DNA of 24,000 bases, taken from assembly GCF_016908375.1 (NCBI RefSeq), contig NZ_JAFBDS010000001.1:381142-405141 (forward strand). Direction: 5' to 3'. The translations under genes were made by a program, and so were the position numbers. The notes below the pieces were generated by a model, which searched no databases, was not told the origin of the DNA, and saw only the letters and a list, made by a program, of their open reading frames with translations. Source of the DNA: Amphibacillus cookii (GTDB lineage: Bacteria > Bacillota > Bacilli > Bacillales > Amphibacillaceae). Position 1 is the first letter of the stretch, and every line of letters begins with the position of its first letter. This document shows, one piece after another, positions 1,346 to 15,542 of this stretch.

Positions 1346-1453
1346 TTATCACAGATAACCGTCCGTAAAACCTCCCTCAAAATAGAGAGTAGAGCAAATC
1401 AATTGAGGTGGGTGATAACGGAGTCTAATGTTTTGATTCACTCAACGAACCTT
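1346..1453 (+). repeat. Composite structured repeat, copy A (5' module only; possible degenerate tail to ~1570)
   Basis: TTATCACAGATAACCGTCCGTAAAACCTCCCTCAAAATAGAGAGTAGAGCAAATCAATTGAGGTGGGTGATAACGGAGTCTAATGTTTTGATTCACTCAACGAACC aligns by eye along its length with the copies at 7052, 7672, 9431 and 15542(-). It lacks the hairpin array. GTGAACGATTAAGATAC near 1530 weakly resembles the AGTGGGYGGGTAAGATCG junction of the other copies. Confidence 0.75.
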
Positions 1454-1732
1454 TAATCATGGCTGGTTCATTAAATCAGAACATCTTACACTATTTTTTT
1501 CCTATGTTGATTCAATTTAGACTATAAGTGAACGATTAAGATACACGCGGGATGATTACGCTTGAAAAATGGGTTGCTCTTCAGTTAGCAGCTATCAATT
1601 TCTCTTATGATAATTTACCCATAATGCAAAAAAAAAACCGTTTACTTATCATGGAAAAGGGTATATAAAATATAAATATAGATAATTAACCCTACAGCAT
1701 CAACTAAAATGGGATAAAAGGGGCTGGATTCC

Positions 1733-1978
1733 ATGAAAAAACAAAAAGTGTATTATTGTTTGCAACGCACCCATCGTCATTATGCAAAATACATGATAGC
1801 AAAGCGAGATTTATCATTTGAAATAAAGCTAACTGCACAACTAATGTTAGATTCGCTTATTGCAGATTGGAATAAAGCAGATTTTGATCGACAAATTAAC
1901 GAAGCCATTGACCAACACGATGTTGAACGTTTTAAAGAAATAAGTGAGGCTAAAAAACATTATGCTTGGGAATATTGA
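1733..1978 (+). CDS. Small IDEAL-domain-containing protein (putative)
   Basis: 81-aa ORF with AAAGGGG SD. The C-terminal half LTAQLMLDSLIADWNKADFDRQINEAIDQHDVERFKEISEAKK fits the recalled IDEAL-domain pattern (..LD....k..l..ID.AlD..d.e.F..Ls). Followed by a strong terminator. Confidence 0.5.
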   Translation: MKKQKVYYCLQRTHRHYAKYMIAKRDLSFEIKLTAQLMLDSLIADWNKADFDRQINEAIDQHDVERFKEISEAKKHYAWEY

Positions 1979-2022
1979 CATGATAAAACCTTGTCAGTAT
2001 CTGACAAGGTTTTATCATGTCA
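1976..2022. terminator. Perfect 22-bp-stem palindrome (bidirectional terminator-like hairpin)
   Basis: TGACATGATAAAACCTTGTCAG-TAT-CTGACAAGGTTTTATCATGTCA. The stem begins in the stop codon of the upstream gene, and the T/A-rich arms provide U-tracts on either strand. Confidence 0.7.
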
Positions 2023-2110
2023 TCTTTACAGTTGAGGAAAAATGTGTCTATTTGTTAATGATAAATTTATGTTATAGTGTAGGGAGTGTAATAAATTGAG
2101 GTGACTCACA

Positions 2111-2899
2111 ATGAAATTATTAATAACGACAACGCTAATAACGCTAGTATTTCTTAATGGCTGTCAGCAAATACAGCAAGATGATACGGCTAAACATGCT
2201 GATATGGTGTCACAGAAGCGCGGATCTGTTCTAATCGAAAAAGGAATTGTTGAATTATCTGACGAACAAGATCATGATAAGAACGTCGCAGGTATTGATC
2301 CAGAGACAGAATTATATGTGGTTGATAACCCTGACAGTATTGAGGTTTATGTTAATAAACAACGTCGTTTACCTGAAGGCTACGAACCTGATGATTTAGT
2401 TGAACCCGATGTTGAGCACTTATCGCAACAAGGTGTTAATCGTCGTTTATTAAGACAAGAGGCGGCTGAAGCATTAGAGTTATTATTTGAACAGGCTGAT
2501 GAACAGGGAATTGATCTTGTTGCGGTCTCAGGTTATCGCTCTTATGAGCGCCAAAAGACGATTTATCAAAGTAATGTTGCTAATAAAGGGCAAGAGGAGG
2601 CCGATCGTTTTTCAGCGCAGCCTGGGACGAGCGAGCATCAAACCGGCTTAGCGATGGATGTAAGTGCGGCTTCTGTTTCATTTTTACTTGATCAAGCTTT
2701 TGATCAAACGGATGAAGGTAGTTGGTTAGTTGAGCATGCCCATCAGTTTGGTTTTGTTATTCGTTATCCGGAAGGAAAAACAGACATTACGGGTTATGAG
2801 TTTGAACCATGGCACCTTCGCTATCTTGGTGAGGAACTTGCCACTCATCTCTATGAAGAAGATTTAACACTAGAAGAATATTTTGGCTATCATTATTAA
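2111..2899 (+). CDS. Peptidase M15B (VanY/LdcB-like) D-Ala-D-Ala / LD-carboxypeptidase, lipoprotein
   Basis: GAGGTGA SD 7 nt upstream. Signal peptide with lipobox (LVFLNGC). LAS-family zinc motifs SGYRSYERQ, SEHQTGLAMD and EPWHLRY. Confidence 0.85.
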   Translation: MKLLITTTLITLVFLNGCQQIQQDDTAKHADMVSQKRGSVLIEKGIVELSDEQDHDKNVAGIDPETELYVVDNPDSIEVYVNKQRRLPEGYEPDDLVEPDVEHLSQQGVNRRLLRQEAAEALELLFEQADEQGIDLVAVSGYRSYERQKTIYQSNVANKGQEEADRFSAQPGTSEHQTGLAMDVSAASVSFLLDQAFDQTDEGSWLVEHAHQFGFVIRYPEGKTDITGYEFEPWHLRYLGEELATHLYEEDLTLEEYFGYHY

Positions 2900-2903
2900 T
2901 AAA

Positions 2904-2941
2904 AAGCACCTGCAAAAAGTAGTTTTGCAGGTGCTTTTTTA
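2904..2941 (+). terminator. Rho-independent terminator
   Basis: GCACCTGCAAAA (2906-2917) pairs with TTTTGCAGGTGC (2923-2934), 5-nt loop, then a T6 run. Confidence 0.85.
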
Positions 2942-3040
2942 GGTTAGATAGCTTGTTGTCCTGTACTGAGTCAAGCTAACTGAAGAAAAACTTAAAAATT
3001 ATGATACAATAAGAAAAACGGTTAGCGGAGGAATTAGGAA

Positions 3041-4426
3041 ATGGATAAAAGAACGGAGTATGACACCATCGGACCGATTGAAGTCGAACAAAATAAATAT
3101 TGGGGCGCTCAAACCCAACGAAGTCTTGAAAATTTTCCGATTGGTAATGAAAAGATGCCAGATCGATTGATAGAAGCTTTTGTTATGCTAAAGCGAAGTG
3201 CTGCGATCGCCAATCATCAGTTAGGCAATCTATCGAAGTTAAAAAGGGAAGCCATTATTTATGCGTGTGATTGCTTGTTATCTGGTGAGCGAACAGAGCA
3301 TTTTCCACTTGTTGTTTGGCAAACAGGTAGTGGCACCCAAACGAACATGAACGTAAACGAAGTGCTCAGTTATATCGGTAATCAATATTTAATGAATCGA
3401 CAACAAGACGTGCGCCTTCACCCAAATGATGATCTCAATCAATCGCAGAGCTCTAATGATACCTTTCCCACTGCTATGCATATAGCCAGTGTGTTAGCGA
3501 TAGAGGAAGAATTATTACCCGCATTGTTGATGATCACACAAACATTAAAACACCAAAGTGAGAAGTACAAACATGTCGTTAAGATAGGACGTACACATCT
3601 TCAAGATGCAACACCACTGACATTTGGACAAGAAATAACGGGTTGGTTACATATGGTTGAAACAATGACTATCATGATAAAAGAAGATTTAACGTATTTG
3701 CATGAATTGGCAATCGGTGGCACCGCAGTTGGTACTGGGATTAATGCTAATCCGCAATTTGGGAAAATCGTTGCAGAACAATTAACGTTATTTACAAATC
3801 GCCCTTTTCAATCAGCTACTAATAAATTTCATGCACTAACGAGCCATGATCAAATGGTACGTGCACATGGTACTTTGAAAGCATTAGCTGCCGACTTGAT
3901 GAAGATAGCCAATGACGTTAGGTGGCTAGCTAGTGGACCGAGGGCAGGTTTTGGGGAAATTGACATTCCTGCTAATGAACCAGGAAGTTCAATTATGCCA
4001 GGGAAAGTCAACCCTACTCAAGCCGAGGCATTGACAATGGTTGCTGTTCAAGTGATGGGGAATGATGCCACGATTGGTATTGCTGCTAGTCAAGGTAACT
4101 TTCAATTAAATGTGTTTAAACCTGTTATTGCATATAATTTTCTCCAATCGGTACGTTTGTTAGCAGACAGTATCTGTTCTTTTACTGAACGTTGTTTGGT
4201 GGGCCTAACACCTAACGAAGAGAAAATGACTGCTTATTTAAATGATTCACTTATGTTAGTCACAGCATTAAATCCATATATAGGGTATGAAAAAGCCGCG
4301 AAAATTGCTAAAAAAGCCTTTGATGAGCAATTAACATTAAAGCAAGCCGCGATACAATCTAACTTGGTATCGGAAGCTGAATTTGATCAATGGGTAGATC
4401 CTAAACGAATGATTGGCGATGTGTAG
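3041..4426 (+). CDS. fumC: Class II fumarate hydratase
   Basis: 461 aa; fumarate lyase signature GSSIMPGKVNPTQ, plus TGSGTQTNMN and SSNDTFPTAMH motifs. GGAGG SD. Possible extended -10 TGATACAAT at 3002-3010. Confidence 0.95.
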   Translation: MDKRTEYDTIGPIEVEQNKYWGAQTQRSLENFPIGNEKMPDRLIEAFVMLKRSAAIANHQLGNLSKLKREAIIYACDCLLSGERTEHFPLVVWQTGSGTQTNMNVNEVLSYIGNQYLMNRQQDVRLHPNDDLNQSQSSNDTFPTAMHIASVLAIEEELLPALLMITQTLKHQSEKYKHVVKIGRTHLQDATPLTFGQEITGWLHMVETMTIMIKEDLTYLHELAIGGTAVGTGINANPQFGKIVAEQLTLFTNRPFQSATNKFHALTSHDQMVRAHGTLKALAADLMKIANDVRWLASGPRAGFGEIDIPANEPGSSIMPGKVNPTQAEALTMVAVQVMGNDATIGIAASQGNFQLNVFKPVIAYNFLQSVRLLADSICSFTERCLVGLTPNEEKMTAYLNDSLMLVTALNPYIGYEKAAKIAKKAFDEQLTLKQAAIQSNLVSEAEFDQWVDPKRMIGDV

Positions 4427-4518
4427 TCAATCGCGCTAGATTTTTCCTTGCGAGCTAGTAATTAACGCTATTAAAGTAAATAGTTTTACCCATACTAGCA
4501 GTAAGGAGGTGAACAACG

Positions 4519-4719
4519 ATGACTGATAGAAATCAAACAAATAAACTTGTTGTTCCCGGTGTTGAGCAAAAGTTAGAGCAAATGAAATATGAAATTGCAC
4601 AAGAATTCGGAGTTACACCTGGACCGAGTGAAACTGCACGTGCAAATGGATCAGTTGGTGGTGAAATCACTAAAAGACTCGTCCAAGAAGCACAGCATCA
4701 AATCGGCCCACGTTCTTAA
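4519..4719 (+). CDS. Alpha/beta-type small acid-soluble spore protein (SASP)
   Basis: 66 aa; [10 protein letters not shown] and [12 protein letters not shown] are the two conserved alpha/beta SASP blocks. AAGGAGGTG SD. CATACTA (about 4489-4495) upstream resembles a sigma-G -10 box. Confidence 0.9.
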
Positions 4720-4787
4720 ATAAAAAAAACTTTAATCAGTGGGCGTTTTAGGACGGCTATCTGTAAAGCTATAAGTTAGAAAATTGA

Positions 4788-4822
4788 AGAGAGGCATCGA
4801 TAATTATAATCGATGCCTCTCT
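4788..4822. terminator. Bidirectional terminator between SASP gene (+) and msmX (-)
   Basis: AGAGAGGCATCGAT-AATTATA-ATCGATGCCTCTCT, a perfect 14-bp stem with A-run upstream and T-rich downstream. Confidence 0.8.
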
Positions 4823-4847
4823 TTGTATCATAAAGGGGGGTAAACAC

Positions 4848-5951
4848 TTATTTAATGGCTAACTCTGTTTCTACATCAAAGAAATGGGATTTGTGCATAT
4901 CGAAAGCCAATTGTATATTATCGCCACCATCGACATCGGTGCGTGAATCTACACGAGCAATGAATTCTTGATCAGATAATTTTGAATACAAGTAAGATTC
5001 AGATCCCATCAGCTCCGCCACTTCAATTTGGGCTTTGATTGTTGAACCAGGGTTTGCATCGACAAAAACAGGTTCATCATGAATATCTTCAGGGCGCACA
5101 CCCAGCACAAGTTCTTTACCAATATAGCCTTGTTCACGAAGAACTTTCATTTTTCCTTCAGGGACTTGAATGGTTTGTTTTTCGGAAAGGCGGAATCCAG
5201 CTTCTTCTAACGTTCCATTGAAAAAGTTCATTGCAGGTGACCCGATAAAGCCAGCTACAAAGATATTGTCCGGTTTATCATATACTTCTTTCGGTGCCCC
5301 AACTTGTTGAATTACTCCATCTTTAAGTACGACAATACGCGTTGCCATCGTCATCGCTTCGGTTTGGTCGTGTGTAACATAAATGGTTGTTGTTTGTAGA
5401 CGTTGGTGAAGCTTCTGAATTTCAGCACGCATTTGACCACGCAGTTTAGCATCTAAGTTTGATAATGGCTCATCCATTAAGAATACCTTTGCATCACGAA
5501 CGATAGCACGACCGAGCGCAACACGTTGGCGTTGCCCACCAGAAAGTGCTTTTGGTTTACGATCTAAATAAGGTTCAAGACCAAGTATTTGTGCCGCATT
5601 TTTAACCCGGCGTTCGATTTCATCTTTTTTAAATTTACGCAACTTCAAACCAAATGCCATGTTGTCATATACATTCATATGTGGATATAAGGCATAGTTT
5701 TGGAACACCATGGCGATATCACGATCTTTAGGTGCGACATCATTCATTAGCTTATCATCAATGTAAAATTCACCTGCTGTAATTTCTTCAAGACCTGCGA
5801 TCATACGTAAAGTTGTTGATTTACCACAACCCGATGGACCAACGAATACGATGAATTCTTTGTCTTTGATTTCAAGATTAAAATCATCAACCGCTTTGAC
5901 GCCATCCTTTTCATAAACTTTATCAATATTCTTTAATGATAATTCAGCCAT
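4848..5951 (-). CDS. msmX: Multiple-sugar ABC transporter ATP-binding protein (MsmX/MalK/UgpC family)
   Basis: 367 aa. Walker A GPSGCGKST, signature LSGGQRQR, Walker B VFLMDEPLS, H-loop VTHDQ, C-terminal TOBE-like domain. Near-colinear with recalled B. subtilis MsmX (MAEL...FIVFVGPSGCGKSTTLRM...). Confidence 0.9.
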   Translation of the reverse strand: MAELSLKNIDKVYEKDGVKAVDDFNLEIKDKEFIVFVGPSGCGKSTTLRMIAGLEEITAGEFYIDDKLMNDVAPKDRDIAMVFQNYALYPHMNVYDNMAFGLKLRKFKKDEIERRVKNAAQILGLEPYLDRKPKALSGGQRQRVALGRAIVRDAKVFLMDEPLSNLDAKLRGQMRAEIQKLHQRLQTTTIYVTHDQTEAMTMATRIVVLKDGVIQQVGAPKEVYDKPDNIFVAGFIGSPAMNFFNGTLEEAGFRLSEKQTIQVPEGKMKVLREQGYIGKELVLGVRPEDIHDEPVFVDANPGSTIKAQIEVAELMGSESYLYSKLSDQEFIARVDSRTDVDGGDNIQLAFDMHKSHFFDVETELAIK

Positions 5952-5971
5952 TGTAAAATCCTCCTCAAAAT

Positions 5972-5985
5972 TGTAAGCGTTTTAC
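5972..5985. promoter_or_regulatory. cre-like (CcpA) box upstream of msmX
   Basis: TGTAAGCGTTTTAC matches TGWAANCGNTNWCA at 12/14 positions and lies 21 nt upstream of the msmX start codon. Confidence 0.3.
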
Positions 5986-6057
5986 TTGATGGGTTAAGTC
6001 TACTTTAAAATGGTGTATTGGTAAATGTTAATCATGCACAAAAAGTTATCTTTTGTT

Positions 6058-6071
6058 TGTGCACGCTTACA
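6058..6071. promoter_or_regulatory. cre-like (CcpA) box in the regulator-msmX intergenic region
   Basis: Reverse complement TGTAAGCGTGCACA fits WTGNAANCGNWNNCW with one mismatch. Shares ACGCTTACA with the box at 5972. Confidence 0.4.
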
Positions 6072-6092
6072 AAAATGGTTTTCAGCTATCAT

Positions 6093-6989
6093 TCAATCAA
6101 GATAGCGCTTTATTAACAAAATTAAATATACAGAAATAGCACCCTCAAATTGTTTTACCTCAATTTCAGTTTTCTCGATAAATTTATCAATTCGATACTG
6201 TAGACTATTACGGTGCATATACATTTCTTTAGCAGCAAGACTTGTGTTTGAATTGCATTCAAGAAATGTTTGGATGGAGCGCAATAATTCTTCATCAGTT
6301 GCTGTTTCTTTTAAAATTGCTTTAACTAAAAAATGATAATCGTGTTCTGCACTTAATGTCGGTAATAAATAAGGTACAGCAGAAACATAAGACATCACTG
6401 ACTTGACATTAAAAGCTTTCATTTGATTAAAGCTATCTTTCATCCAATGATAATAACGTTTTGCATCGGTAGGAGAAGTCATATATGGGCCAATATAAAA
6501 ATGGACGTCAATTAAGAAATCGCTTGTGAAAATCTCAGCCATTTCAAAATATGATGGATTATCTTCCTCGAGAAAACGCTGTTCTTCAATGATAATACCT
6601 GATTGCTGATCAATCCACATCAGTGGTGGGGTGATGGGATATAACCCATCAATTGCTTCACGAAAATCTGTTGGATCTGTTAACGATTCAGATAAGCTAA
6701 AGTAGACAAAGCGATAATCTTTAGACAGAAGGTTAAACGTTTCTGGAAATTGTTCAAATAGTAATTGATACCAAAGTTGCTCTCGAGCTGTAATGGGTGG
6801 ATGTGCACCATGGTAGGGTGTTAACATAAGTGATAACAAGGTTAAATCTTTATCATCTAGCTCTGTTTTTGCAATACCGATCACATCATTCGATGATGTC
6901 GTAAACCATTTATACGCATAGAAATCCACACTTTCCTGCTCATTGATAATGGTTAAACTAGGATAAAGTTGTTTTAATTGGTTGATCAT
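6093..6989 (-). CDS. PucR/CdaR-type helix-turn-helix transcriptional regulator (YxkF-like by position upstream of msmX)
   Basis: 298 aa. The C-terminal NTSLAAKEMYMHRNSLQYRIDKFIEKTEIEV is a PucR_C-type HTH. AGAGGGG SD. From memory, B. subtilis has a gene of similar size (yxkF) directly upstream of msmX. Confidence 0.7.
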   Translation of the reverse strand: MINQLKQLYPSLTIINEQESVDFYAYKWFTTSSNDVIGIAKTELDDKDLTLLSLMLTPYHGAHPPITAREQLWYQLLFEQFPETFNLLSKDYRFVYFSLSESLTDPTDFREAIDGLYPITPPLMWIDQQSGIIIEEQRFLEEDNPSYFEMAEIFTSDFLIDVHFYIGPYMTSPTDAKRYYHWMKDSFNQMKAFNVKSVMSYVSAVPYLLPTLSAEHDYHFLVKAILKETATDEELLRSIQTFLECNSNTSLAAKEMYMHRNSLQYRIDKFIEKTEIEVKQFEGAISVYLILLIKRYLD

Positions 6990-7051
6990 ACTTTAAACCC
7001 CTCTAATAACTATTTCTTTATATTATAGCAAATTGCCCTATGAAGCGGTAA

Positions 7052-7330
7052 TGATAATTGGATAACCGACTGTAAAACCCCCTCTCAATTAGAAAGTAGA
7101 GATAAATCTATCTAGGTGTAGGTGATAACTGACGCTCATGTCCTGATGCACTCACCATTAGTGGGTGGGTAAGATCGTAGACTAAAACCGCCACATCTTT
7201 AAAAGGATTACAGACTAAGATCGCCACGTCCTGTGGCAACGTCTGCATGACCTACATCCTGTAGGCCCACGTCTGTATGACCTACAATCCTGTAGCCCTC
7301 CGCCCGCGGATTGAAGGTTCGTTTTATTTA
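7052..7330 (+). repeat. Composite structured repeat, copy B (5' module + closing helix + hairpin array)
   Basis: 5' module 7052-7160 (GATAAC boxes at 7061 and 7124). Closing helix GTGGGTGGG 7161-7169 pairs with TCCGCCCGC 7299-7307. One 33-nt AGACTAA..GGATTAC unit (7179-7211). Three hairpins: GCCAC-GUCCU-GTGGC 7223-7237, CCTAC-AUCCU-GTAGG 7251-7265, CTAC-AAUCCU-GTAG 7282-7295. Tail GATTGAAGGTTCGTTTTATTT. Confidence 0.85.
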
Positions 7331-7402: not shown

Positions 7403-7410
7403 TCTGTTAA

Positions 7411-7483
7411 CGCGCTCGGAGGGATTCGAACCCCCGACACATGGCACCGGAAACCATTGCTCTATCCCCTGAGCTACGAGCGC
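7411..7483 (-). tRNA. tRNA-Arg (anticodon CCG)
   Basis: The reverse complement folds as a 73-nt cloverleaf: acceptor GCGCTCG/CGAGCGC, D arm GCTC-AGGGGATA-GAGC, anticodon arm ATGGT-TTCCGGT-GCCAT (anticodon CCG), variable GTGTC, T arm GGGGG-TTCGAAT-CCCTC, discriminator G. No CCA is encoded. Confidence 0.9.
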
Positions 7484-7509
7484 ATAATAGAAACAAAAGG
7501 ACAAGAAAT

Positions 7510-7538
7510 ATTATAACGGATATAAGCATATATTTCAA
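7510..7538 (-). promoter_or_regulatory. Sigma-A promoter for tRNA-Arg
   Basis: On the - strand: TTGAAA (7533-7538), 17-nt spacer, TATAAT (7510-7515), about 25 nt upstream of the mature tRNA 5' end. Confidence 0.65.
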
Positions 7539-7596
7539 TGAGCAATATTACAGATTTACCTAATCATTGATAAAACAAGAAAAATAGTCAGCTGTC

Positions 7597-7605
7597 TGTT
7601 ATAAT
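7597..7605 (+). promoter_or_regulatory. Orphan extended -10 promoter (TGtTATAAT) pointing into repeat copy C
   Basis: TG at 7597-7598 and TATAAT at 7600-7605. No ORF with an SD follows. Repeat copy C begins about 65 nt downstream. No good -35 box. Confidence 0.4.
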
Positions 7606-7671
7606 AATGAACGAGGTTTAATTTTCCATTTGTTCGGGGAAGATGTAGTTAATAAATGTGTTGAATTGAAC

Positions 7672-7900
7672 GATCACAGATAACCGTCCGTAAAAGGCCC
7701 GCCTCAAAATAGAGAACAGAGCTCATCTATTAAGGCTGGAGATAACGGATACTCTTGTCCTAATTCACTCAATTAACCGCAGTGGGCGGGTAAGATCGTA
7801 GGTCACGTCCTGTGGCAACGTCTGCATCACCTATATCCTGTAGGCCCACGTCTGCATGATCTATGTCCTGTATCCGTCCACGGGTTGAAGGTTCGTTTTA
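7672..7900 (+). repeat. Composite structured repeat, copy C
   Basis: 5' module 7672-7780 (GATAAC at 7679 and 7741). Closing helix 7782-7792 pairs with 7871-7881 (11 bp including two G-U). No AGACTAA unit. Hairpins GTCAC-GUCCU-GTGGC 7802-7816, CCTAT-AUCCU-GTAGG 7830-7844 and a degenerate third (~7858-7875). Tail GGTTGAAGGTTCGTTTTA. Confidence 0.85.
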
Positions 7901-7917
7901 TTTGACCTTTATTGACC
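7901..7917 (-). promoter_or_regulatory. CtsR operator upstream of clpP
   Basis: Reverse complement GGTCAAT-AAA-GGTCAAA matches the CtsR direct repeat (A/G)GTCAAA-NAN-(A/G)GTCAAA with one mismatch. It overlaps candidate -35 hexamers TTGACC at 7902 and 7912 (TTGACC-17-TACTAT possible). Confidence 0.75.
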
Positions 7918-7981
7918 AATTAGGTACTATTAAAGTAATGAAGAAATTTTATTATGTGTATCCTTAAGGAGGAAGATAGTT

Positions 7982-8563
7982 ATGAATTTAATACCTACAG
8001 TTATTGAGCAAACAAATCGAGGAGAGCGTGCATATGACATTTACTCTCGTTTATTAAAAGATCGGATTATTATGTTAGGTAGTGGGATTGATGACAATGT
8101 TGCAAATAGTATTGTCGCTCAACTTTTATTCTTAGAAGCAGAGAGTCCTGACAAAGATATTTCTATTTATATTAATTCACCGGGTGGCTCGATTACAGCT
8201 GGTATGGCGATTTATGATACGGTGCAGTTTATTAAACCTGATGTATCGACGATTTGTGTCGGGATGGCTGCTTCAATGGGTGCCTTTTTACTTGCGGCTG
8301 GAGCACCGGGAAAACGCTATGCTTTGCCAAATAGTGAAGTGATGATTCACCAGCCATTAGGCGGGACGCAAGGCCAAGCCTCAGATATTCAAATTCATGC
8401 TAAACGAATTATAGAAATGCGGGAAAAATTAAACCAAATTCTCTCTGATCGAACTGGTCAACCATTAGAAGTGATCGAAAAAGACACAGACCGTGATAAT
8501 TTCATGTCAGCAGAGGCAGCTAAAAAATATGGTTTAATTGATAAGGTGATGGAGAAGAAATAA
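7982..8563 (+). CDS. clpP: ATP-dependent Clp protease proteolytic subunit
   Basis: 193 aa. N-terminal [26 protein letters not shown], and GMAASMG and MIHQP motifs carrying the catalytic Ser and His. AAGGAGG SD. Confidence 0.97.
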
Positions 8564-8566
8564 GGT

Positions 8567-8596
8567 AAAAAGCTAGCATTAGCTAGCTTTTTTTTC
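8567..8596 (+). terminator. Rho-independent terminator of clpP
   Basis: AAAAAGCTAGC-ATTA-GCTAGCTTTTTTTTT starts 4 nt after the stop codon. Confidence 0.85.
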
Positions 8597-8808
8597 GTCT
8601 AGAAAATTATAAAATTTATGAGCGGTGGATAACGATATAACAGAATAGTCATATCCAGACCATCTCTTTGTTAAAAGGCATAACTATCCATAAAACGCCT
8701 ATTTATCATTATATTGTAGTTTTTACATGAACATAAAATGAATGTGCATGCTTTCTCTCTTGCTCTTAGCAATTTAGGGTAATAAAAGAGAGGGATCTGT
8801 GTATTTTT

Positions 8809-8938
8809 TTGACTTCCTTTAAAGCCTTGATACGATAAACACTACCATCATATTTAGTATAGAGCCTTTTATTTGTCCTCTACTATTAGAGTCGATATAA
8901 AAAAACCATTAGTCCTTAGAGAGGCCTAATGGTTTTTA
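8809..8938 (+). ncRNA. Candidate orphan small RNA (promoter plus terminator, no ORF)
   Basis: TTGACT (8809-8814), 16-nt spacer, TGaTACGAT (8828-8836), then about 60 nt without an SD or ORF. Ends at hairpin AAACCATTAG..CTAATGGTTT (8903-8935) followed by TTTTT on the + strand. Sequence-only prediction. Confidence 0.3.
8894..8935 (-). terminator. Rho-independent terminator of the yheA-like gene (bidirectional hairpin)
   Basis: 10-bp stem AAACCATTAG/CTAATGGTTT. On the - strand it is followed by TTTTTTTATAT. Confidence 0.75.
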
Positions 8939-8950
8939 AGGTTTTCAGCA

Positions 8951-9298
8951 TTAATCTTGTGCGCCATAAAGTTCTTCTAATGGCTTTGTAATCGTACGAC
9001 TAATATTATTGATTAACTCATTGACACGTTGTTCTTCATCCATAAGCTTAGAAATTTGATCATGCTGTTGCACAGTTTCAACAATTTTACGTGCCTGATC
9101 AACTTCTTCTTCAGTAATTTCTTGACCTTGCATTTGCTTTTGTTGAAGTTCTAATTGAGTATTACGAAAATCATCAAACATTTTCTTTGCGATTTCATCA
9201 CTCATCACTGCATCATAAGCAGCCTTTAAGCTGTTAAATTCTTCGCTATCACGGATAGCTTGTTCAAGTGCACTCGCACTTTCTTGAATGTTCGACAT
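8951..9298 (-). CDS. YlbF/YmcA-family protein, YheA-like (UPF0342)
   Basis: 115 aa, acidic coiled-coil. LEQAIRDSEEFNSLKAAY...FRNTQLELQQKQMQGQEITEEE...ITKPLEELY is close to recalled B. subtilis YheA. AGGAGGA SD. Confidence 0.8.
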   Translation of the reverse strand: MSNIQESASALEQAIRDSEEFNSLKAAYDAVMSDEIAKKMFDDFRNTQLELQQKQMQGQEITEEEVDQARKIVETVQQHDQISKLMDEEQRVNELINNISRTITKPLEELYGAQD

Positions 9299-9430
9299 AT
9301 AATAAAATCCTCCTAAAATATAGTGACCAATGTTTGGTCGGTCATTTTTTTACTGTTCCACTATAACAAACTTAACCCATTAAGCCAAATCAAACCTATT
9401 ATGCACTAAATTATAAAAATATGAACGGAT

Positions 9431-9745
9431 TTATCACAGATAATGGTCAGTAAACAGCCACCACAAAATAGAGAGCAGAGGTCAATCGATTTAGGTGGGC
9501 GATAACAGATGCTAATCTCCTGATTGACTCAACTACCAATTAGTGGGTGAGTAAGATCGTAGACTAAAACCGCCACATTTTTAAAAAGGATTACAGACTA
9601 AGATCGCCACTTCCTTAAGAAGGATTACAGACTAAGACCGCCACGTCCTGTGGCAACGTCTGCATGACCTACATCCTGTAGGCCCACGTCTGCATAACCT
9701 ACATCCTGTAGGCCTCCGCCCACTGATTGAAGTTTCGTTTTCTTT
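9431..9745 (+). repeat. Composite structured repeat, copy D (longest; expanded internal units)
   Basis: 5' module 9431-9540 (TTATC-ACA-GATAA at 9431-9443, second GATAAC at 9501). Closing helix AGTGGGTG 9542-9549 pairs with CGCCCACT 9717-9724. Two 34-nt AGACTAA..GGATTAC units (9561-9594, 9595-9628). Hairpins GCCAC-GUCCU-GTGGC 9640-9654, CCTAC-AUCCU-GTAGG 9668-9682 and 9698-9712. Tail GATTGAAGTTTCGTTTTC. Confidence 0.85.
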
Positions 9746-9838
9746 CTTTACTTAAAATACCTTGAATTGATAAAGTTACTATTCATTATCCCCACATATA
9801 TTCTTTATTTACATCCATAATATAAGTGGAGGTGATTT

Positions 9839-10006
9839 ATGATGGAAAATAACCATAAAGCAAAAGATTCATGTAAATGTGCAAAGCGTGAAAGTGATCA
9901 TCGAGAAGTGGATAAAACATTGTCAAGAGATTACGGACATGAATTTGCTGATGAATTAATATCCCATCCGAGAAGAAATAAGAATCATGCTGAATATAAA
10001 AAGTAA
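9839..10006 (+). CDS. Small basic protein, 55 aa (HEFA-motif paralog 1; possibly YfhD-like sporulation protein)
   Basis: Below the track cutoff. GGAGGTGA SD (9828-9835) then ATG. Product MMENNHKAKDSCKCAKRESDHREVDKTLSRDYGHEFADELISHPRRNKNHAEYKK. Shares the SD context and a [SP]R.[YF].HEFA[DN]E motif with the ORF at 10310. The overlapping - strand track ORF is rejected. Confidence 0.5.
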   Translation: MMENNHKAKDSCKCAKRESDHREVDKTLSRDYGHEFADELISHPRRNKNHAEYKK

Positions 10007-10067
10007 GCGTGACGTCAAGGTTGGAATAAAATAGGTAGTTTCCATTGTAAAAAGCTTCTTTTTTAAA

Positions 10068-10105
10068 AATAGAGTGAACCACTGCTATTGTTGGTTCACT
10101 CTATT
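10068..10105. terminator. 14-bp-stem hairpin downstream of small ORF 1
   Basis: AATAGAGTGAACCA-(10 nt)-TGGTTCACTCTATT, a perfect stem. The U-tract is weak on + (AATAT) and better on - (TTTTAAAAAA), so the terminating direction is uncertain. Confidence 0.5.
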
Positions 10106-10309
10106 AATATGCTTTGCGTGATTGATCGAAGCAAATGCTGGTTAATTATAAAGTGTTACCATGCTAATTGATATCAAGCTTGTTTAAAAAATTAATCTTA
10201 AAATTCTAGATATTGTAAGTCGCTGTTCATGACATGGAAAGTTAACCATATAGCTGTAGGGATAGTCGGTTTATAATGGGACAAACTAATGGTTGTGGAG
10301 GTGATAGTA

Positions 10310-10468
10310 ATGAGTCATGAGAAAAAAGCTGAAAAACGTAAACGTAAAGGGCGCAATGATCATGAAACAATTAAAGAGACATCGCCAAGACGCTTTGATC
10401 ATGAGTTTGCCAATGAACCGATGACACCAGTGGAGCTCGATCGAAATAAAATACCGAAAAAATGCTAA
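10310..10468 (+). CDS. Small basic protein, 52 aa (HEFA-motif paralog 2)
   Basis: Below the track cutoff. GTGGAGGTGAT SD then ATG. Product MSHEKKAEKRKRKGRNDHETIKETSPRRFDHEFANEPMTPVELDRNKIPKKC. A terminator follows directly. Confidence 0.55.
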   Translation: MSHEKKAEKRKRKGRNDHETIKETSPRRFDHEFANEPMTPVELDRNKIPKKC

Positions 10469-10472
10469 TTAA

Positions 10473-10502
10473 AAAGGCTTCTCTTTAAAGAGAGGCCTTT
10501 TC
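10473..10502 (+). terminator. Rho-independent terminator
   Basis: AAAGGCTTCTC-TTTAAA-GAGAGGCCTTTT (one G-U pair), then a T-run. Confidence 0.7.
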
Positions 10503-10567
10503 TATAAATATCGTTTAAAAACTTACATAAGTGGGAAAAGAAAATCAATGATAAGGAGTGATAAATA

Positions 10568-10912
10568 ATGAATAATGCGCAATATCAATCCGTAGTGATT
10601 GCGTTACAAAATTGTCGAGAGGCGTGTTTGCACTGTTATCGATCTTGTTTCAAAGAAGATGCAAATCATATGGCTAAATGTATCCAAATGAGTCAAGAAT
10701 GCGCAACGATTTGTGCTCAATTTGAGCAAGCTTTATTCTTTGATACACAGTTTATTGAGAGCTACGCAAAACTGTGTATTGAAGCATGTCAGGTATGTGG
10801 CTATGAATGTGCTAAACATGAACATGATCACTGCCAGGATTGTGCTAAAGCTTGTTATGCGTGCGCTGATGCATGTAAAGGATTACTAGACAGTAGAGGC
10901 TTGATCGATTAG
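10568..10912 (+). CDS. Cysteine-rich four-helix-bundle copper-binding protein (DUF326 / Csp3 / YhjQ-like)
   Basis: 114 aa with about 16 Cys in repeated C-x3-C-x2-C-x3-C spacing (CREACLHCYRSC, CQVCGYEC, CQDCAKACYACADAC). AAGGAG SD. Confidence 0.8.
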   Translation: MNNAQYQSVVIALQNCREACLHCYRSCFKEDANHMAKCIQMSQECATICAQFEQALFFDTQFIESYAKLCIEACQVCGYECAKHEHDHCQDCAKACYACADACKGLLDSRGLID

Positions 10913-10965
10913 AGCATCTTTTGAGAAGCAAGAAGTACGAATTATGATTGGAGAAATGATGCTCT

Positions 10966-11619
10966 TTAAGACATGCTTCTAATTTGAAATTTGGATCTTT
11001 TGTTGATCCAAATTTTTATACATAGCGCCAACCATGAGATCGATATGCTTATAGCAGCTACAATATCTGTTAAGTAATGTGCCTCTAAAATAATTCGACT
11101 TAATGCCACGCCTGTAATAGCTGTTATCCCGAGTGATAGAACACCTGCTTTTAATCGTTTATTCGCTTGCAAATGATAGACAAGAAAGATAATGAACATA
11201 AATAATAAGGTCGTGCGCATCGTATGTCCACTTGGAAAGCTATAGGAGACAAGTTCAAATTCAATGTTAAAAAACTGAATCATCCGTTCTGAACCTGGGC
11301 GTGTACGTTGGAATAATACTTTGAGCAGATAGTTCAAAAACACTCCACCGATAGACATAACCGTAAACAAAATAGCAAAGTCCCATCGCTTTTTATAAAT
11401 GAGACTAATAACTACAATAATTGAAATGGAAAGAACAAATTCAATAGCACCAAGAAATGATAAGTGGCTAACAACATATATAAGTGAAAAGTTGTTGAGT
11501 AATTCCGTGATCCTAACACCAATAGTATCCAATAAACGCCAGGGTAAAATAGTTGTTGCAATTGCCGTATATAAAAAGATAATAAGTGAAATCACGATTA
11601 TCTTGGTAGAATGTAACAT
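10966..11619 (-). CDS. PAP2-family membrane phosphatase
   Basis: Track ORF trimmed to MLHSTK..., because the GTG at 11631 lies inside the GTGAGG SD. The three PAP2 motifs are present: KVLFQRTRP, PSGH and SRIILEAHYLTD. Multiple TM helices. Confidence 0.85.
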   Translation of the reverse strand: MLHSTKIIVISLIIFLYTAIATTILPWRLLDTIGVRITELLNNFSLIYVVSHLSFLGAIEFVLSISIIVVISLIYKKRWDFAILFTVMSIGGVFLNYLLKVLFQRTRPGSERMIQFFNIEFELVSYSFPSGHTMRTTLLFMFIIFLVYHLQANKRLKAGVLSLGITAITGVALSRIILEAHYLTDIVAAISISISWLALCIKIWINKRSKFQIRSMS

Positions 11620-11696
11620 AGTAAACCTCACTTTTTAAAAAAACTTTAGAATAGCTTAACATTTTTTATTATGGTTCGCTAGTCGAAATTTAGGAA

Positions 11697-11725
11697 TTGA
11701 CATTACAAGATCGATACTTTATGAT
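11697..11725 (+). promoter_or_regulatory. Sigma-A promoter for the M-box/mgtE transcript
   Basis: TTGACA (11697-11702), 17-nt spacer, TATGAT (11720-11725). An alternative TATAAT lies at 11739-11744. Confidence 0.55.
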
Positions 11726-11744
11726 GGTGAATGTATATTATAAT

Positions 11745-11905
11745 TCCTCGTTAGGTGAGGCTCCTGTGCTGGAGATATGCTACTGCCCAAAAACGTCCAA
11801 AGACGCCAATGGGTCAACAGAGACTATCGAATTAAGGTGGTTTTTAATGTAGCTGGACTTGATCCTATGCCGCACAGTGCTAAAGCTCTACGAATGGAGG
11901 CGATC
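11745..11905 (+). promoter_or_regulatory. M-box (ykoK leader) magnesium riboswitch aptamer
   Basis: TCCTCGTTAGGTGAGGCTCCTGT...GCTACTGCCCAAAAACGTCCAAAGACGCCAATGGGTCAACAG...CACAGTGCTAAAGCTCTACGAATGGAGG matches the recalled conserved M-box blocks (GUUAGGUGAGGCUCCUG, CUGCCCAAAAAUGUC.AAAGACGCCAAUGGGU, AGUGC.AAAGCUCUACGA). It lies upstream of mgtE, as in B. subtilis. Confidence 0.85.
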
Positions 11906-11935
11906 AGGTTATTTGGGATGCACTTAAATAATTAA

Positions 11936-11964
11936 AGCTCACCTTCATTCAAAGGTGGGCTTTT
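11936..11964 (+). terminator. M-box expression-platform terminator
   Basis: GCTCACCTT (11937-11945) pairs with AAGGTGGGC (11952-11960) including one G-U, then TTTT. Confidence 0.8.
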
Positions 11965-12135
11965 CCTATGTCTGAGGGAAGTATAAGGGTAAAACTTAAT
12001 GATTTAACCATATTAAAAAAGGGGGAATACGGTATGGGAAGTTGCGCAGATTCTGATTCGAGTTATAGGCAGAGCAGTATAAAAAGGCCCCTACTGTATT
12101 TGTCGGTATCGGTCTCTAAATGAGGAGGATATAAT

Positions 12136-13497
12136 ATGGTCAAGTTTGAAGAATTAAATCGAGAAGATTATGCAACTGATGTGCTACATTATTTAAAAAA
12201 AGAAAATAAAAATAAATTTAGAGAACTTTTTTTGGAACTCCATCCAACGAATCAACTTGATATTTTTGTTCAGTTGAATCGTCAATTGCGAGATCGTTTG
12301 TATGTATTAATTTCAGGTGAAGAATTTGCTGAATTATTTGAAGGACTAGATTTAGAAAGACAAAAACAAATCATCTTAGAATTAGATGAAGCATATATTG
12401 CTGAACTATTTAATGCCATTCCTACTGATGAAGTAGCTGATTTACTCGCTGAATTAGAAACTTTTGAAGCGAGTAAAATATTGAATTCAATGGATAAAGA
12501 GCGTGCGATTATTATTCGTGAATTATTAAGTTATCCTATTGAAACAGCTGGTGGGATCATGGCGAAAGAATTCGTCACGATAAAGTCTACTGACAAAGTC
12601 AGTGAGGTTATTGATAATTTGAGATTTTCAGCACCTGATGCAGAAACGATATACTACTTATATGTGCTCGACCAAAAGTCAAGACTTGTAGGTGTATTAT
12701 CCTTGCGGGATTTAATTATAGCACCGGCGTTTGAAACGGTTGAAAATATTATGGGAACAGATATTGTTACCGTCACAACAGATATGGATCAAGAAGATGT
12801 TGCGAAGCTGATGAAACGTTATGACTTTTTGGCTGTCCCAGTTGTTACGAAAGAAGATGTCTTAACCGGTATTATTACCGTTGACGATGTTATGCAAGTA
12901 ATGGATGAGGAAGTTACAGAAGACTTTGATGAATTTATCGCAGCTAAAGGGGCGATTGACATTAATATAAGTTCTTTTCAAGCAGCGAAAAAACGTGCGC
13001 CATGGATTGTTATGTTGATATTTTTTGGTTTTATTACCGGTGGTGTGATCAATTCATTTGAAGAGTCCTTAGAGCAGGTTGTCATCCTTGCCGCTTTTAT
13101 TCCTTTAATCATGGATTCAGCAGGAAATGCAGGAACACAATCATTAGCGGTTGTTGTACGTGCAATTGCGACAGATTCCTTTGAAAAGAAAGGTTTATTA
13201 CATGCTGTTAAGCGAGAATTTGGGACAGGTATTATGCTTGGTGTTATTACTGGAGTTGTATTATTGATTTTAGTTCCGATAGTGTATGGCAATTTTGCAT
13301 TATCTTTTATTGTTGCTGCCTCACTATTTTTAACATTAAGTTTCTCTACAGTGATTGGTGCTATTGTTCCAGTTGTCATTAATAAATTGAAATTAGATCC
13401 GGCGATTGCTTCAGGTCCATTTATTACGACCGTTAATGATATTCTAGGATTAATTATTTATTTTACTATAGCGACGACATTTATCGCTTATTTATAA
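12136..13497 (+). CDS. mgtE: Magnesium transporter MgtE
   Basis: 453 aa. N-terminal MgtE_N helical domain, tandem CBS domains (VGVLSLRDLI, TGIITVDDVM), and a C-terminal 5-TM domain with PLIMDSAGNAGTQS and ASGPFITTVNDILGL. GAGGAGG SD. Confidence 0.95.
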   Translation: MVKFEELNREDYATDVLHYLKKENKNKFRELFLELHPTNQLDIFVQLNRQLRDRLYVLISGEEFAELFEGLDLERQKQIILELDEAYIAELFNAIPTDEVADLLAELETFEASKILNSMDKERAIIIRELLSYPIETAGGIMAKEFVTIKSTDKVSEVIDNLRFSAPDAETIYYLYVLDQKSRLVGVLSLRDLIIAPAFETVENIMGTDIVTVTTDMDQEDVAKLMKRYDFLAVPVVTKEDVLTGIITVDDVMQVMDEEVTEDFDEFIAAKGAIDINISSFQAAKKRAPWIVMLIFFGFITGGVINSFEESLEQVVILAAFIPLIMDSAGNAGTQSLAVVVRAIATDSFEKKGLLHAVKREFGTGIMLGVITGVVLLILVPIVYGNFALSFIVAASLFLTLSFSTVIGAIVPVVINKLKLDPAIASGPFITTVNDILGLIIYFTIATTFIAYL

Positions 13498-13739
13498 ATT
13501 AAATTTAGATAGGGAAACCGAACATTAATATCTGACTAAACATGTGTAAAATCCTAGCTGTGTAAGAGAATGATCAGGTAATTACCCCATTATTTTGAAG
13601 GAGCCTATGTCTTTTGGTCTAACCTTTGTGGGATGTTATCGTTATATCGATATTTACACAATTTTAATATTTCATTATTAAAGAAAATAGGCTATAATAT
13701 GTGCAACACTATTTCACGAATGTTAGTGGAGGTGATGTT

Positions 13740-13943
13740 GTGAAATATGTTTACTGGTTTTTTCTGTCTATATTAGTGTTGTGGGAAACAAATGCATTAC
13801 AAGATATTTTTGGATTTTCTGCTTTTTGGCAATATTTAGCTAATGTCATTTTCGTTGTCTATTTTGCTTATTTATTAAATATAGATATTAAATGGAACAA
13901 ATTATTAATGAGATATAGTCAGCAAAAAAGGTCAATAAATTAA
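13740..13943 (+). CDS. Small hydrophobic membrane protein, 67 aa, unknown function
   Basis: Track ORF 13701-13943 trimmed to GTG 13740, 7 nt after GGAGG (13728-13732). TATAAT at 13694-13699 would place the TSS after 13701. Two predicted TM helices. Terminator follows immediately. Confidence 0.45.
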   Translation: MKYVYWFFLSILVLWETNALQDIFGFSAFWQYLANVIFVVYFAYLLNIDIKWNKLLMRYSQQKRSIN

Positions 13944-13981
13944 AAAGGATTCTGCATGGTGGCCATGTAGAATCCTTTTTT
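13943..13981 (+). terminator. Rho-independent terminator
   Basis: AAAAGGATTCTGCATGG-TGG-CCATGTAGAATCCTTTTTT, a 13-bp stem with one G-U pair. Confidence 0.75.
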
Positions 13982-14040
13982 ACATAATGAAAAGAGTATA
14001 AAATTTTCACAAAGAATTGTAAATGGACTAAGGTTTTTAA

Positions 14041-14775
14041 ACTGTTACTCAACTTTCGACTGAAAATAGTTGGAAACGGAATGAAGAAGATCGAATGATA
14101 CAAATCAAACCAGAAGAAGATGCAACAGAACTGGAATCAGGAGAAATGATAGATTATGGACATATTCAAATGGGTAAGAAGGGAAAAAACACACGCCAAA
14201 CACGTCTAGTTGTTCAACAATTGACTGAAAAACAACAAGAGAAACGGGAAGGCTATTTACAAAGAAGAAGGCGGAAAGGGGGTCACACCCAATCCGCCAC
14301 AAAAAAGAATCAAATCCAAATTCTTGCCACCAATATAACACGGCAACAATTGGATATGCAAGCGTTGTATCCGATCTATTCCTTGCGTTGGCAAGTGGAG
14401 ATTCTATTTAAAACATGGAAATCATTATTTGATATCGATAAGGTGCGAGCTGTGAATCCAGAGCGGTTTGAGTGTCATTTATACGGTACGCTAATTCATA
14501 TTCTTCTTTCGTCTATGATTGCTTTTCAATGTCGTTATTATCTCCATAAGAAGCATCAGATCGAAGGTAGTGAATACAAGTGTATCGACCTTGCAAAAAG
14601 CGCCATTGAAGATGAGAAAGGACAGCCATTGCATGATATCTCTTCACTTCGTGCACTGATGAAGAATATTTATCAAAATGTATACCGACATGGAAGGAAA
14701 GATCATCGCTATGAGCATATGAGTCCTTTTGATATCTTAAATCTTACTTATGAACGAACTTTCAAAGCAGTATAG
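14041..14775 (+). pseudogene. 5'-truncated IS4-family (DDE_Tnp_1) transposase remnant
   Basis: The frame is open from 14041; the track ORF starts at an internal Met at 14095. It carries the IS4 C-terminal Y-(2)-R-(3)-E-(6)-K signature (YSLRWQVEILFKTWK). Nothing upstream is long enough to hold the two catalytic Asp residues, and I found no terminal inverted repeats. Confidence 0.75.
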
Positions 14776-14818
14776 ATTAATATTTGGGTTTTGCCAAAGC
14801 TTATTGTTTTTTAACTTT

Positions 14819-14952
14819 GTTGATTGGAGAGGAAGGCATTCGACTCCTGCGGGAAAAGCGAAGACGATGAGACCCCACAGTGAGCGTTCTGTGCGAACGA
14901 GGAGGCTCAGCGCGAGCCCGCGGAAAGCGAAATGCCTGGATCGCAAATCAAC
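14819..14952. repeat. GC-rich palindromic intergenic element (134 bp)
   Basis: Outer inverted ends GTTGATT..AGGCATT and AATGCCT..AATCAAC. Internal direct repeats CTGCGGGAAAAGCGAA / CCGCGGAAAGCGAA and hairpin GGCTC-AGCGC-GAGCC. GC content is visibly above the flanks. Both strands give ORF-track artefacts (..TPAGKAKTMRPHSERSVRTRRLSASPRKAKCLDRKSTA..). Confidence 0.7.
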
Positions 14953-15397
14953 AGCCACTTTTAACAGCGTAATATTAAAAAAAAAGCAATAAAGTGGTTT
15001 TTACTAATCATGCACCGAATTGGAAAATAATATAATTTTGTGTAAAAATTATTCACTCTAGACTTGCTTTTTCTGTAATTGATCCTTAGCTTGACGGCTA
15101 TGGGGATGGGTTTCAGCTAACTTGAGTCGCACACTCCTCAAGTGGATCTTCAGCTCATGCTATTCCCGAAGAAGTCTCACCCCTTGCTCTTATCTCCACA
15201 TAGACTGAGGGTTCATACTGAATGCGTAAGCCCAACCGCACGAAATAAAGTGAAGAAGATGTGACACGACTAGAAATAAGAAGTTTCTTATTCTGAGCCC
15301 CGCCCACTCACTAAAGGAAGGATAATGCGGATTTATAAAATTTTAGTAACAGAAACACATAGAACGCAATTACTTTAAGTGAATTACCATGATTCAA

Positions 15398-15542
15398 CAA
15401 CGGTAGTCTTCAATTCGTGGAGGTTTTCGTCATTCTCCCGCTGATTGGTCGTTGAGTGAATCCGGACATGAGCGTCCGTTAACTCCCGCTTAAGTGGGTG
15501 AATTCTACGCTCTATTTTGTTACAGACAGTTATCTGTGATAA
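15398..15542 (-). repeat. Composite structured repeat, copy E (inverted orientation, compact, no hairpin array)
   Basis: Reverse complement TTATCACAGATAACTGTCTGTAAC-AAAATAGAGCGTAGAATTCACCCACTTAAGCGGGAGTTAACGGACGCTCATGTCCGGATTCACTCAACGACCAATCAGCGGGAGAATGACGAAAACCTCCACGAATTGAAGACTACCG aligns with copies A-D. It lacks the C-rich segment and all internal units, as if deleted between CGCCAC repeats. Confidence 0.7.

Follow-up and report, generated by a model that had tools for sequence, protein, structure and literature searches.

Introduction

The described system closest to the element considered here is bcr1 (bcr group A), a repeat of the Bacillus cereus group that is ~155 bp long, is associated with the sequence TTTAT, is bounded by 5-bp direct repeats and carries two stem-loops with compensatory changes. 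The published work on this repeat (Okstad 2004, Klevan 2007 and Kristoffersen 2011) further describes it as most abundant in B. mycoides, as transcribed within untranslated regions and as moving by an unknown mechanism (as summarised in PMC6542083, PMC3184786, PMC6199540). Two other described systems are relevant. The Bacillaceae-1 motif was found through comparative genomics and consists of two RUCCU-loop hairpins whose strand is uncertain (RF01690; Weinberg 2010), and it is listed in Rfam as a small RNA (sRNA) with covariation. ISGst2 of Geobacillus, which belongs with the IS200/IS605 insertion sequences (IS), has a TTTAT target and a TTCAC end motif that have been reported experimentally (PMC10055086). 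In the current study, we examine a dispersed repeat that shares features with all three and that occurs in a stretch of 24,000 nucleotides (nt) from Amphibacillus cookii (NCBI RefSeq assembly GCF_016908375.1, contig NZ_JAFBDS010000001.1, positions 381,142 to 405,141 of the forward strand), which we call the window.

We believe that the copies of this repeat are a non-autonomous, non-coding mobile element of the kind represented by bcr1 in the B. cereus group, and we give this interpretation a probability of roughly 0.8. The original prediction, made from the letters of the window alone, had recognised five segments with conserved sequence blocks and had offered two readings, namely a family of structured noncoding RNA (ncRNA) genes or a non-autonomous element mobilised by an unusual mechanism. 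Gain and loss at orthologous sites of A. jilinensis favours the second of these readings, and the ncRNA gene family is retained only as a rival.

All five segments (copies A to E; Table 1) were found at the places originally given, with the blocks common to all copies and in an unchanged order, and all copies are intergenic. The count of at least five is extended by a sixth, internally deleted mini copy and by a seventh copy located ~220 nt downstream of eno, just past the window end. With a sequence-only covariance model of the 5' module, scores of 75-97 bits (E 1e-22 to 1e-29) are obtained for the five copies, and the core motif AAAATAGAGARCAGAG occurs four times at three or fewer mismatches compared with 0.62 occurrences expected, a number that was reached in none of 100 shuffles. 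The pairing of the C-rich and G-rich stretches that had been proposed for copy A (1371-1380 with 1403-1412, 9 of 10 positions) is likewise correct.

Gain and loss of the element at TTTAT sites

Comparison of the window with its syntenic counterparts in A. jilinensis (L101), A. sediminis (L103) and A. marinus (L106) reveals that the element is mobile and that it gives clean filled and empty sites relative to A. jilinensis. Within 21 kb of synteny, four sites are filled in one of these two species and empty in the other. Upstream of ldh, the A. cookii sequence reads GCTATCATTTTAT/AGCATT and is empty (slashes mark insertion boundaries), whereas A. jilinensis has at the same site GCTATCATTTTAT/CACAGATAACC...GATTGAAGGTTCG TTTTAT/AGCATT, an insertion of ~250 nt with TTTAT on each side. 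The same ends are present at three further polymorphic sites. One is the site of copy A, which is empty in A. jilinensis (CAGTTTAT/CATGAC), and the other two are the A. jilinensis copies at L101 15111 and L101 12318, both of which are missing in A. cookii and reside in the T-tract that follows a terminator hairpin. At the site of copy D, A. jilinensis retains merely a 36-nt remnant that keeps both ends of the element. Copy E is common to the two species, and copy B is an older insertion that is also present in A. jilinensis.

These sites define the element proper, which starts with CACAGATAAC, ends with GATTGAAGGTTCGT and has duplicated TTTAT flanks. Insertion is at the pentanucleotide TTTAT, which is then present on each side of the element; among 16 copies, 15 have an intact 5' end and 13 an intact 3' end, and TTTAT abuts 10 and 9 of these, respectively. 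The search for empty sites in a sister lineage, which had been put forward as a check, therefore succeeded in A. jilinensis with exact boundaries, and the target-site duplications that the original prediction had not found are present. Other negative observations made at the outset have withstood closer analysis. The element has no terminal inverted repeats, as its ends (CACAGATAACCG... and ...GATTGAAGGTTCGT) are unrelated to each other, and it is without an open reading frame (ORF), conserved or otherwise. [quoted passage not shown]

Incomplete copies are also present in A. jilinensis. Solo fragments comprising the 3' hairpin plus tail are located at L101 17037-17095 (minus strand) and 18734-18800 (plus strand), and at L101 2639-2790 (plus strand) there is a copy truncated at its 5' end that contains a Bacillaceae-1 unit of 68 bits; all are absent at the matching places in A. 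cookii. In addition, two copies lie directly downstream of the signal recognition particle (SRP) RNA gene in A. jilinensis (L056 2839-3104), which is reminiscent of the observation, made originally for Bacillaceae-1, that stable RNA operons are frequent neighbours of the motif. We also considered whether TTATCACAGATAA might be a DnaA box or a transcription-factor site, and rejected this reading given that the palindrome is partly made by the target TTTAT and is absent in the B. cereus relatives.

Relationship to a repeat of the Bacillus cereus group

The trail to a related family began with a weak model match in a B. cereus-group contig and led to a repeat that was found only in Bacillus plasmid records, where one record of 5.5 Mb has it in at least 40 places. 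This repeat is ~160 nt long and reads TTTAT/CCCGCATTAACGGGCAGTAAGACCCCCACCTCAAAATTCAGCGAAAGCAAAGAAGTTAGGTGGGGGATCAACTGCCCGTAAAAGCCCGATTGGTGAGGGCTGATAATCAGTGGGGATGAACAAAACCCCCACTGATTAAAGTTTCAC/TTTAT. Reciprocal profile searches with nhmmer show that it is homologous to the Amphibacillus element, a relationship that the original prediction did not include. A profile built only from Amphibacillus copies matches the B. cereus-group repeat end to end (E 4e-6). In the opposite direction, a search of 845 kb with a profile built only from B. cereus copies gave end-to-end matches to Amphibacillus copies (E 3e-9 and 5e-9) and no others; much of this sequence had been preselected for containing part of the motif and so provides a conservative control. 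Furthermore, a joint covariance model picks up both sets at 68-124 bits, and the order of blocks is identical in the two repeats. The 3' hairpin is missing from some B. cereus copies as well (L109, L112), and A. sediminis carries a more B. cereus-like member that ends ...GAAGTTTCAC TTTAT.

Several features of the Amphibacillus element agree with those of bcr1: TTTAT on both sides, a basal length of ~155-165 nt, no ORF, two stem-loop domains with compensatory changes, variable presence among close relatives, and insertion into intergenic or untranslated regions. However, bcr1 has been published as specific to the B. cereus group, whereas the element described here is present in A. cookii, A. 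jilinensis and A. sediminis. The two elements also differ in their first 20 nt and in the linker, and the tip of the Amphibacillus 3' hairpin carries expandable Bacillaceae-1 arrays, none of which are present in the eight B. cereus copies examined.

Other searches returned few or no additional members. A scan of genome contigs with a loose pattern yielded 99 loci, just three of which are true copies, all from A. jilinensis, and the remaining loci were used as negative controls. There was no match to a strict three-block pattern in one metagenome scan, and none in a BLAST search of the Amphibacillus element against plasmids.

Conserved structure and a hypervariable hairpin tip

The basal unit of ~160 nt consists of a 5' hairpin domain, a linker and a terminal hairpin of up to 17 bp. 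The 5' domain has an outer stem (P1) followed by the C-rich/G-rich stem (P2) with the conserved loop CAAAATAGAGA..., the linker contains ..TCCTGATTCACTCAAC.., and the 3' arm of the terminal hairpin reaches the end of the element (..CACTGATTGAAGGTTCGT). The cleanest basal copy, from A. jilinensis (L066 5216-5055), is 162 nt long when the flanking TTTATs are counted. Folded as single-stranded DNA (ssDNA), it has the P1/P2 domain, the linker and a perfect 17-bp terminal hairpin (CGAGCCTTCAATCAGTG paired with CACTGATTGAAGGTTCG), with a z score of -4.3. The B. cereus copies likewise fold into P1 plus P2, at -24 to -46 kcal/mol.

Structure-preserving substitutions are present in the 5' domain, as a covariance-model check proposed with the original prediction was intended to reveal, and the pattern is not one of decay without structure. 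In a structure-aware realignment of 28 copies, 68.9% of P1/P2 cells have a standard pair (33-43% in slid controls), 50 cells are changed on both sides (5-26 in slid controls) and the covariation score is 0.218 (at most 0.088 in slid controls). None of 500 shuffles reached the observed pairing, covariation score or double-change count. Although this alignment was fitted to the structure and thus favours it, the margin is large nonetheless. Several P1 positions switch between the two clades, for example from G-C to C-G or from U-A to G-C. In contrast, when the 5' module was aligned with plain MAFFT, RNAalifold found hardly any consensus structure for either strand because the C-rich and G-rich arms were misregistered, and it was the structure-aware realignment that recovered the fold. 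Compensatory changes of this kind are expected for hairpins used in ssDNA transposition as much as for an RNA or an ncRNA gene.

The tip of the terminal hairpin is hypervariable, being either lost together with the whole hairpin (copy A and the mini copies) or tandemly expanded. The original prediction had treated the 5' and 3' parts as modules that occur together or apart. Copies with and without the 3' part do exist, but these are really deletion states (copy A) and tip-expansion states (copies B, C and D) of one two-hairpin element. An extreme case is the mini copy, in which the first ~20 nt (CAGATAGCCGTCCTAAAA) are joined to the 3' arm and tail (CGCCCACTGATTAAAG plus T-run/TTTAT). At the other extreme, the arrays are composed of 5-bp hairpins with RTCCT loops that were made by tandem duplication; the array of copy D, for example, contains tandem units of 34 nt (2.6 times) and 30 nt (2.0 times), and copies with arrays are 220-305 nt long. 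Copy C has an array in A. cookii, whereas its A. jilinensis orthologue has a plain basal hairpin (CAGTGGGGAGAACAAAAACACCCACT), and thus the tip changes faster than species diverge.

The search of Rfam, another of the checks proposed initially, gave a divided answer. The array part matches RF01690, but neither the 105-nt 5' module nor the tail has a match in Rfam. The arrays of copies B and D reach 81-82 bits along the full 67-nt model and contain its two RUCCU-loop hairpins, and copy C scores 33.4 bits at 7787-7844, just under the 35-bit gathering threshold. A Bacillaceae-1 unit is also found within the 3' hairpin of the A. sediminis member. However, the Rfam model spans just 67 nt of an element of 220-305 nt, and here the motif is an insert that expands in tandem within a mobile element and is not evidently a gene in its own right. 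The bcr1-like tail is in none of the sequences of the original Bacillaceae-1 alignment, and in the B. subtilis and B. licheniformis examples examined the motif is instead inside a different repeat of ~190 nt with the ends CAGCGTGTCGACAAACCC...TCACGCTGA (PMC2864571 supplement). The ends of that repeat are inverted (CAGCGTGTCGACAAACCC ... GGGTTT..TCACGCTGA). Its second hairpin loop contains AUCACCUCCU, which we take to be identical to the 3' end of 16S ribosomal RNA.

Table 1. Positions in the window of the repeat copies, their matches to Bacillaceae-1 and an unoccupied target site
Feature	Position	Strand	Description
Copy A	1350-1451	+	5' hairpin domain alone; terminal hairpin deleted up to the flanking repeat
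Copy A flanks	TTTAT 1345-1349; TTTAAT 1452-1457	+	
Mini copy	~4725-4763	-	Internally deleted; only the two extremities kept
Copy B	~7056-7322	+	Decayed 5' domain; hairpin array ~7160-7305; 3' TTTAT 7323-7327
RF01690 (Bacillaceae-1) match in copy B	7199-7265	+	82.2 bits, E 4e-14
Copy C	7675-7896	+	Array ~7780-7880; 3' TTTAT 7897-7901 abutting the CtsR operator of clpP
Copy D	9435-9738	+	Longest array; 5' TTTAT 9430-9434; 3' TTTCT 9739-9743
RF01690 (Bacillaceae-1) match in copy D	9616-9682	+	80.9 bits, E 8e-14
Copy E	15538 to ~15392	-	Basal type without C-rich arm, tail decayed; 5' TTTAT 15539-15543 (minus strand)
Empty target site	15600-15612	-	Reads ATCATTTTAT/AGC; in A. jilinensis filled with a full ~250-nt copy, TTTAT on both sides

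How the element might move

The signature of IS200/IS605 'peel-and-paste' elements and their protein-less derivatives (PATEs) combines three features, in that inverted terminal repeats are lacking, the target is a fixed pentanucleotide rich in AT, and the ends have hairpin domains. The element described here has all three, with one hairpin domain ~20 nt in from its left end and the other at its right end. We therefore propose that the element is mobilised in trans by a single-strand transposase of the IS200/IS605 type, a proposal that we consider our leading candidate for the mechanism even though we would give it slightly less than an even chance of being correct. According to this proposal, the element would move as ssDNA that is cut and rejoined in trans by an IS200/IS605-family Y1 (HUH) transposase. 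The enzyme would recognise the hairpin domains near each end and insert the element 3' of TTTAT, and the right-hand TTTAT would be the element's own cleavage motif.

A Y1 transposase query identified 238 Bacillus plasmid records with Y1 transposase genes. In a multi-copy alignment, the element ISBth16 begins directly after TTTAT on its left side and ends on its right side at ...GGGTAGTTCAC (TTCAC). The B. cereus and A. sediminis relatives of our element end ...GTTTCAC right before the 3' TTTAT and so share the right-end TTCAC of ISBth16 and ISGst2, and at this position TTCGT or TTCAT is found in the copies of A. cookii and A. jilinensis. The left end of ISBth16 also folds into a like shape, with ~20 nt followed by an outer stem and a C-rich/G-rich stem. 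When the right-end hairpin of ISBth16 is compared with the bcr1-like 5' domain, the score is 40 versus 22.4 +/- 4.4 for shuffled sequences, a marginal result that 1 of 300 shuffles reached. The likeness to ISBth16 and ISGst2 includes the absence of inverted terminal repeats, the presence of end hairpin domains, insertion beside TTTAT and the TTCAC motif in some relatives, and one of the differences is the apparent 5-bp duplication.

A number of points weigh against our interpretation. The B. cereus relative has been called bcr1-like by its match to published descriptions and not to a reference sequence, and it may be bcr1, bcr2 or bcr3. IS200/IS605 elements normally produce no target duplication, and hence the model works only if TTTAT is the motif that the element itself carries at its right end. 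The element's two hairpin domains are unlike each other, and a profile search with nhmmer finds no similarity to the ends of ISBth16. When the ISBth16 TnpA protein was used to look for a Y1 transposase in Amphibacillus, the output was swamped by B. cereus-group proteins, and no others were returned. Finally, many IS200/IS605 elements are strongly orientation-biased, and our element is mixed in its orientation relative to replication, with five independent insertions in the direction of the fork and four against it. For this count, the plus strand was taken as the leading-strand sequence on the basis of a GC skew that is positive on that strand throughout the window.

A more far-reaching version of the proposal would hold that bcr1-like repeats, including those of Amphibacillus, are protein-less derivatives of the ISBth16/ISGst2 clade and that Bacillaceae-1 is a self-expanding hairpin array, not a gene. 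We offer this version only tentatively, and regard it as rather unlikely to hold in full. The array would then ride in the terminal hairpin of such elements and might spread protein-binding hairpins around the genome.

Mosaic hairpin arrays of variable length are also familiar from bacterial interspersed mosaic elements (BIMEs) and clusters of repetitive extragenic palindromic (REP) sequences. A further parallel is provided by the MITE with an internal minisatellite in Porphyromonas gingivalis, which similarly has a short mobile scaffold whose interior is length-variable via tandem units (PMC4596501). Both differ from the Amphibacillus element in their sequences, hosts and end structures. An element of the type mobilised by REP-associated tyrosine transposases (RAYTs) was considered and rejected, as REP elements are 20-40 nt long with GTAG or CGTC tags (PMC3733652), whereas the units observed here are longer and lack this 5' tag arrangement.

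Alternative explanations

The alternative that survives best, although we judge it improbable, is that a site-specific recombinase of the tyrosine or serine type moves the element via a circular intermediate, with TTTAT serving as the shared crossover core, as has been proposed for bcr1. The head-tail junction that such a circle would contain (..GGTTCGTTTTAT/CACAG..) and the empty targets (..TTTAT/CATG.. and ..TTTTAT/AGC..) do share TTTAT, and often TTTATCA. However, for such enzymes a core of 5 nt is very short when the flanks share nothing else, none of the copies in the 150 kb examined has a linked recombinase gene, and the conserved hairpin domains near both ends would be left unexplained.

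Given the Rfam listing of Bacillaceae-1 as an sRNA with covariation, it seems appropriate to question whether the copies are instead a family of stand-alone structured sRNA genes, such as CsrA-titrating RNAs produced from the reverse strand. The reverse complement of Bacillaceae-1 was earlier proposed to bind CsrA (PMC4333381), and the hairpin loops of the reverse-strand arrays read CAGGAU or CAGGAC, which resembles CsrA sites and includes the GGA motif expected in the loops of a CsrB/RsmZ-like protein-titrating RNA. For copy D, the reverse strand has a predicted folding energy of -95 kcal/mol (z = -2.6), and the compensatory changes in the 5' domain could be cited in the same sense. Nevertheless, we consider this explanation very improbable. 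There is no conserved promoter or terminator within the copies, copies without the array or the whole 3' hairpin persist, and orientation relative to neighbouring genes varies. The exact TTTAT-flanked gain and loss between sister species, and a scaffold that is homologous to a known mobile repeat, also speak for an element that moves. Expression of copies within neighbouring transcripts is possible, and a role as CsrA sites for copies that are transcribed, which the loop sequences would allow, is a possibility that is not needed to explain the family.

Least probable of all is a classical MITE derived from an IS with a DDE transposase and a 5-bp staggered target cut. In favour of this reading, bcr1 is often listed among bacterial MITEs (PMC3733652) and the 5-bp direct repeat on each side looks like an ordinary target-site duplication, but the element ends are not inverted repeats of one another, the duplicated sequence is always the same pentanucleotide rather than a variable one, and no related full-length IS was seen.

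Genomic context

Among the products of the window is a PucR-family protein with 100% identity to one of A. cookii. The genes of the window are core genes, namely a cation-efflux gene, vanY, fumC, a small acid-soluble spore protein gene, msmX, a gene for a PucR-like regulator, tRNA-Arg(CCG), clpP with its CtsR operator, a ylbF-like gene, an M-box riboswitch with mgtE, ldh, and cggR-gap-pgk-tpi-pgm-eno. The insertions are found in the T-tracts of terminators (L004, L101 15111, L101 12318 and the mini copy) and in divergent promoter regions. We infer that effects on the host are incidental, in that copies land in terminator T-tracts or promoter regions and add stable hairpins to untranslated regions. 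Promoter and terminator scans identified sites that are no commoner than in shuffled sequences, none of which is conserved inside the copies. Short-read contigs of the same organism all break within copies, as expected for a genome-wide repeat.

Individual neighbours of the copies have some characteristics of their own. At 7897-7917, the tandem TTTGACC/TTGACC of the CtsR operator overlaps the clpP promoter, and the start of this operator is formed by the 3' TTTAT of copy C. The M-box (magnesium) riboswitch at 11740-11906 (143 bits) is located upstream of mgtE (12136-13497) and is conserved in all three related species. The segment with tRNA-Arg, clpP and the ylbF-like gene (7410-9298) is inverted in A. 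cookii and A. jilinensis compared with A. sediminis (L103 7709-9122) and A. marinus (L106 8376-9770), and in A. cookii it has copies B and D at its borders. These two copies are directly oriented, and recombination between them therefore does not simply account for the inversion.

A second, GC-richer repeat is present at 14750-15300, downstream of copy E and adjoining the remnant of an IS4-like transposase gene (14095-14775). It recurs in reversed orientation beside a copy (L066a) in A. jilinensis (L066 3600-3790). The ORF at 14750-14992 (..RGRHSTPAGKAKTMRPHSERS..) looks like a spurious translation of this GC-richer repeat.

Implications

The repeat in the window is explained as a new Amphibacillus branch of bcr1-like mobile repeats that is marked by a terminal hairpin expanding into Bacillaceae-1 arrays, and it is not a categorically new kind of element. 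Its analysis links three things that have been filed separately, namely bcr1, Bacillaceae-1 and the TTTAT-targeting IS200/IS605 elements, and a repeat family that was believed to be limited to the B. cereus group now extends to a distant genus of Bacillaceae. In these genomes, an Rfam 'sRNA of unknown function' is the expandable hairpin tip inside a mobile element, which is a caution for annotators who would otherwise call sRNA genes. Copies reside in promoter or terminator regions of core genes (clpP, ldh, tRNA-Arg) and break short-read assemblies, and they therefore matter for both annotation and assembly.

The comparison also provides a concrete and testable candidate for movement, given that the TTTAT target, and in the B. 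cereus and A. sediminis relatives the TTCAC motif as well, is shared with IS200/IS605 elements from the same family of bacteria. If it is true that these repeats are protein-less IS200/IS605 derivatives, an Rfam family whose function is unknown would have to be re-filed, and the question of how bcr1 moves, which dates from 2004, would be settled.

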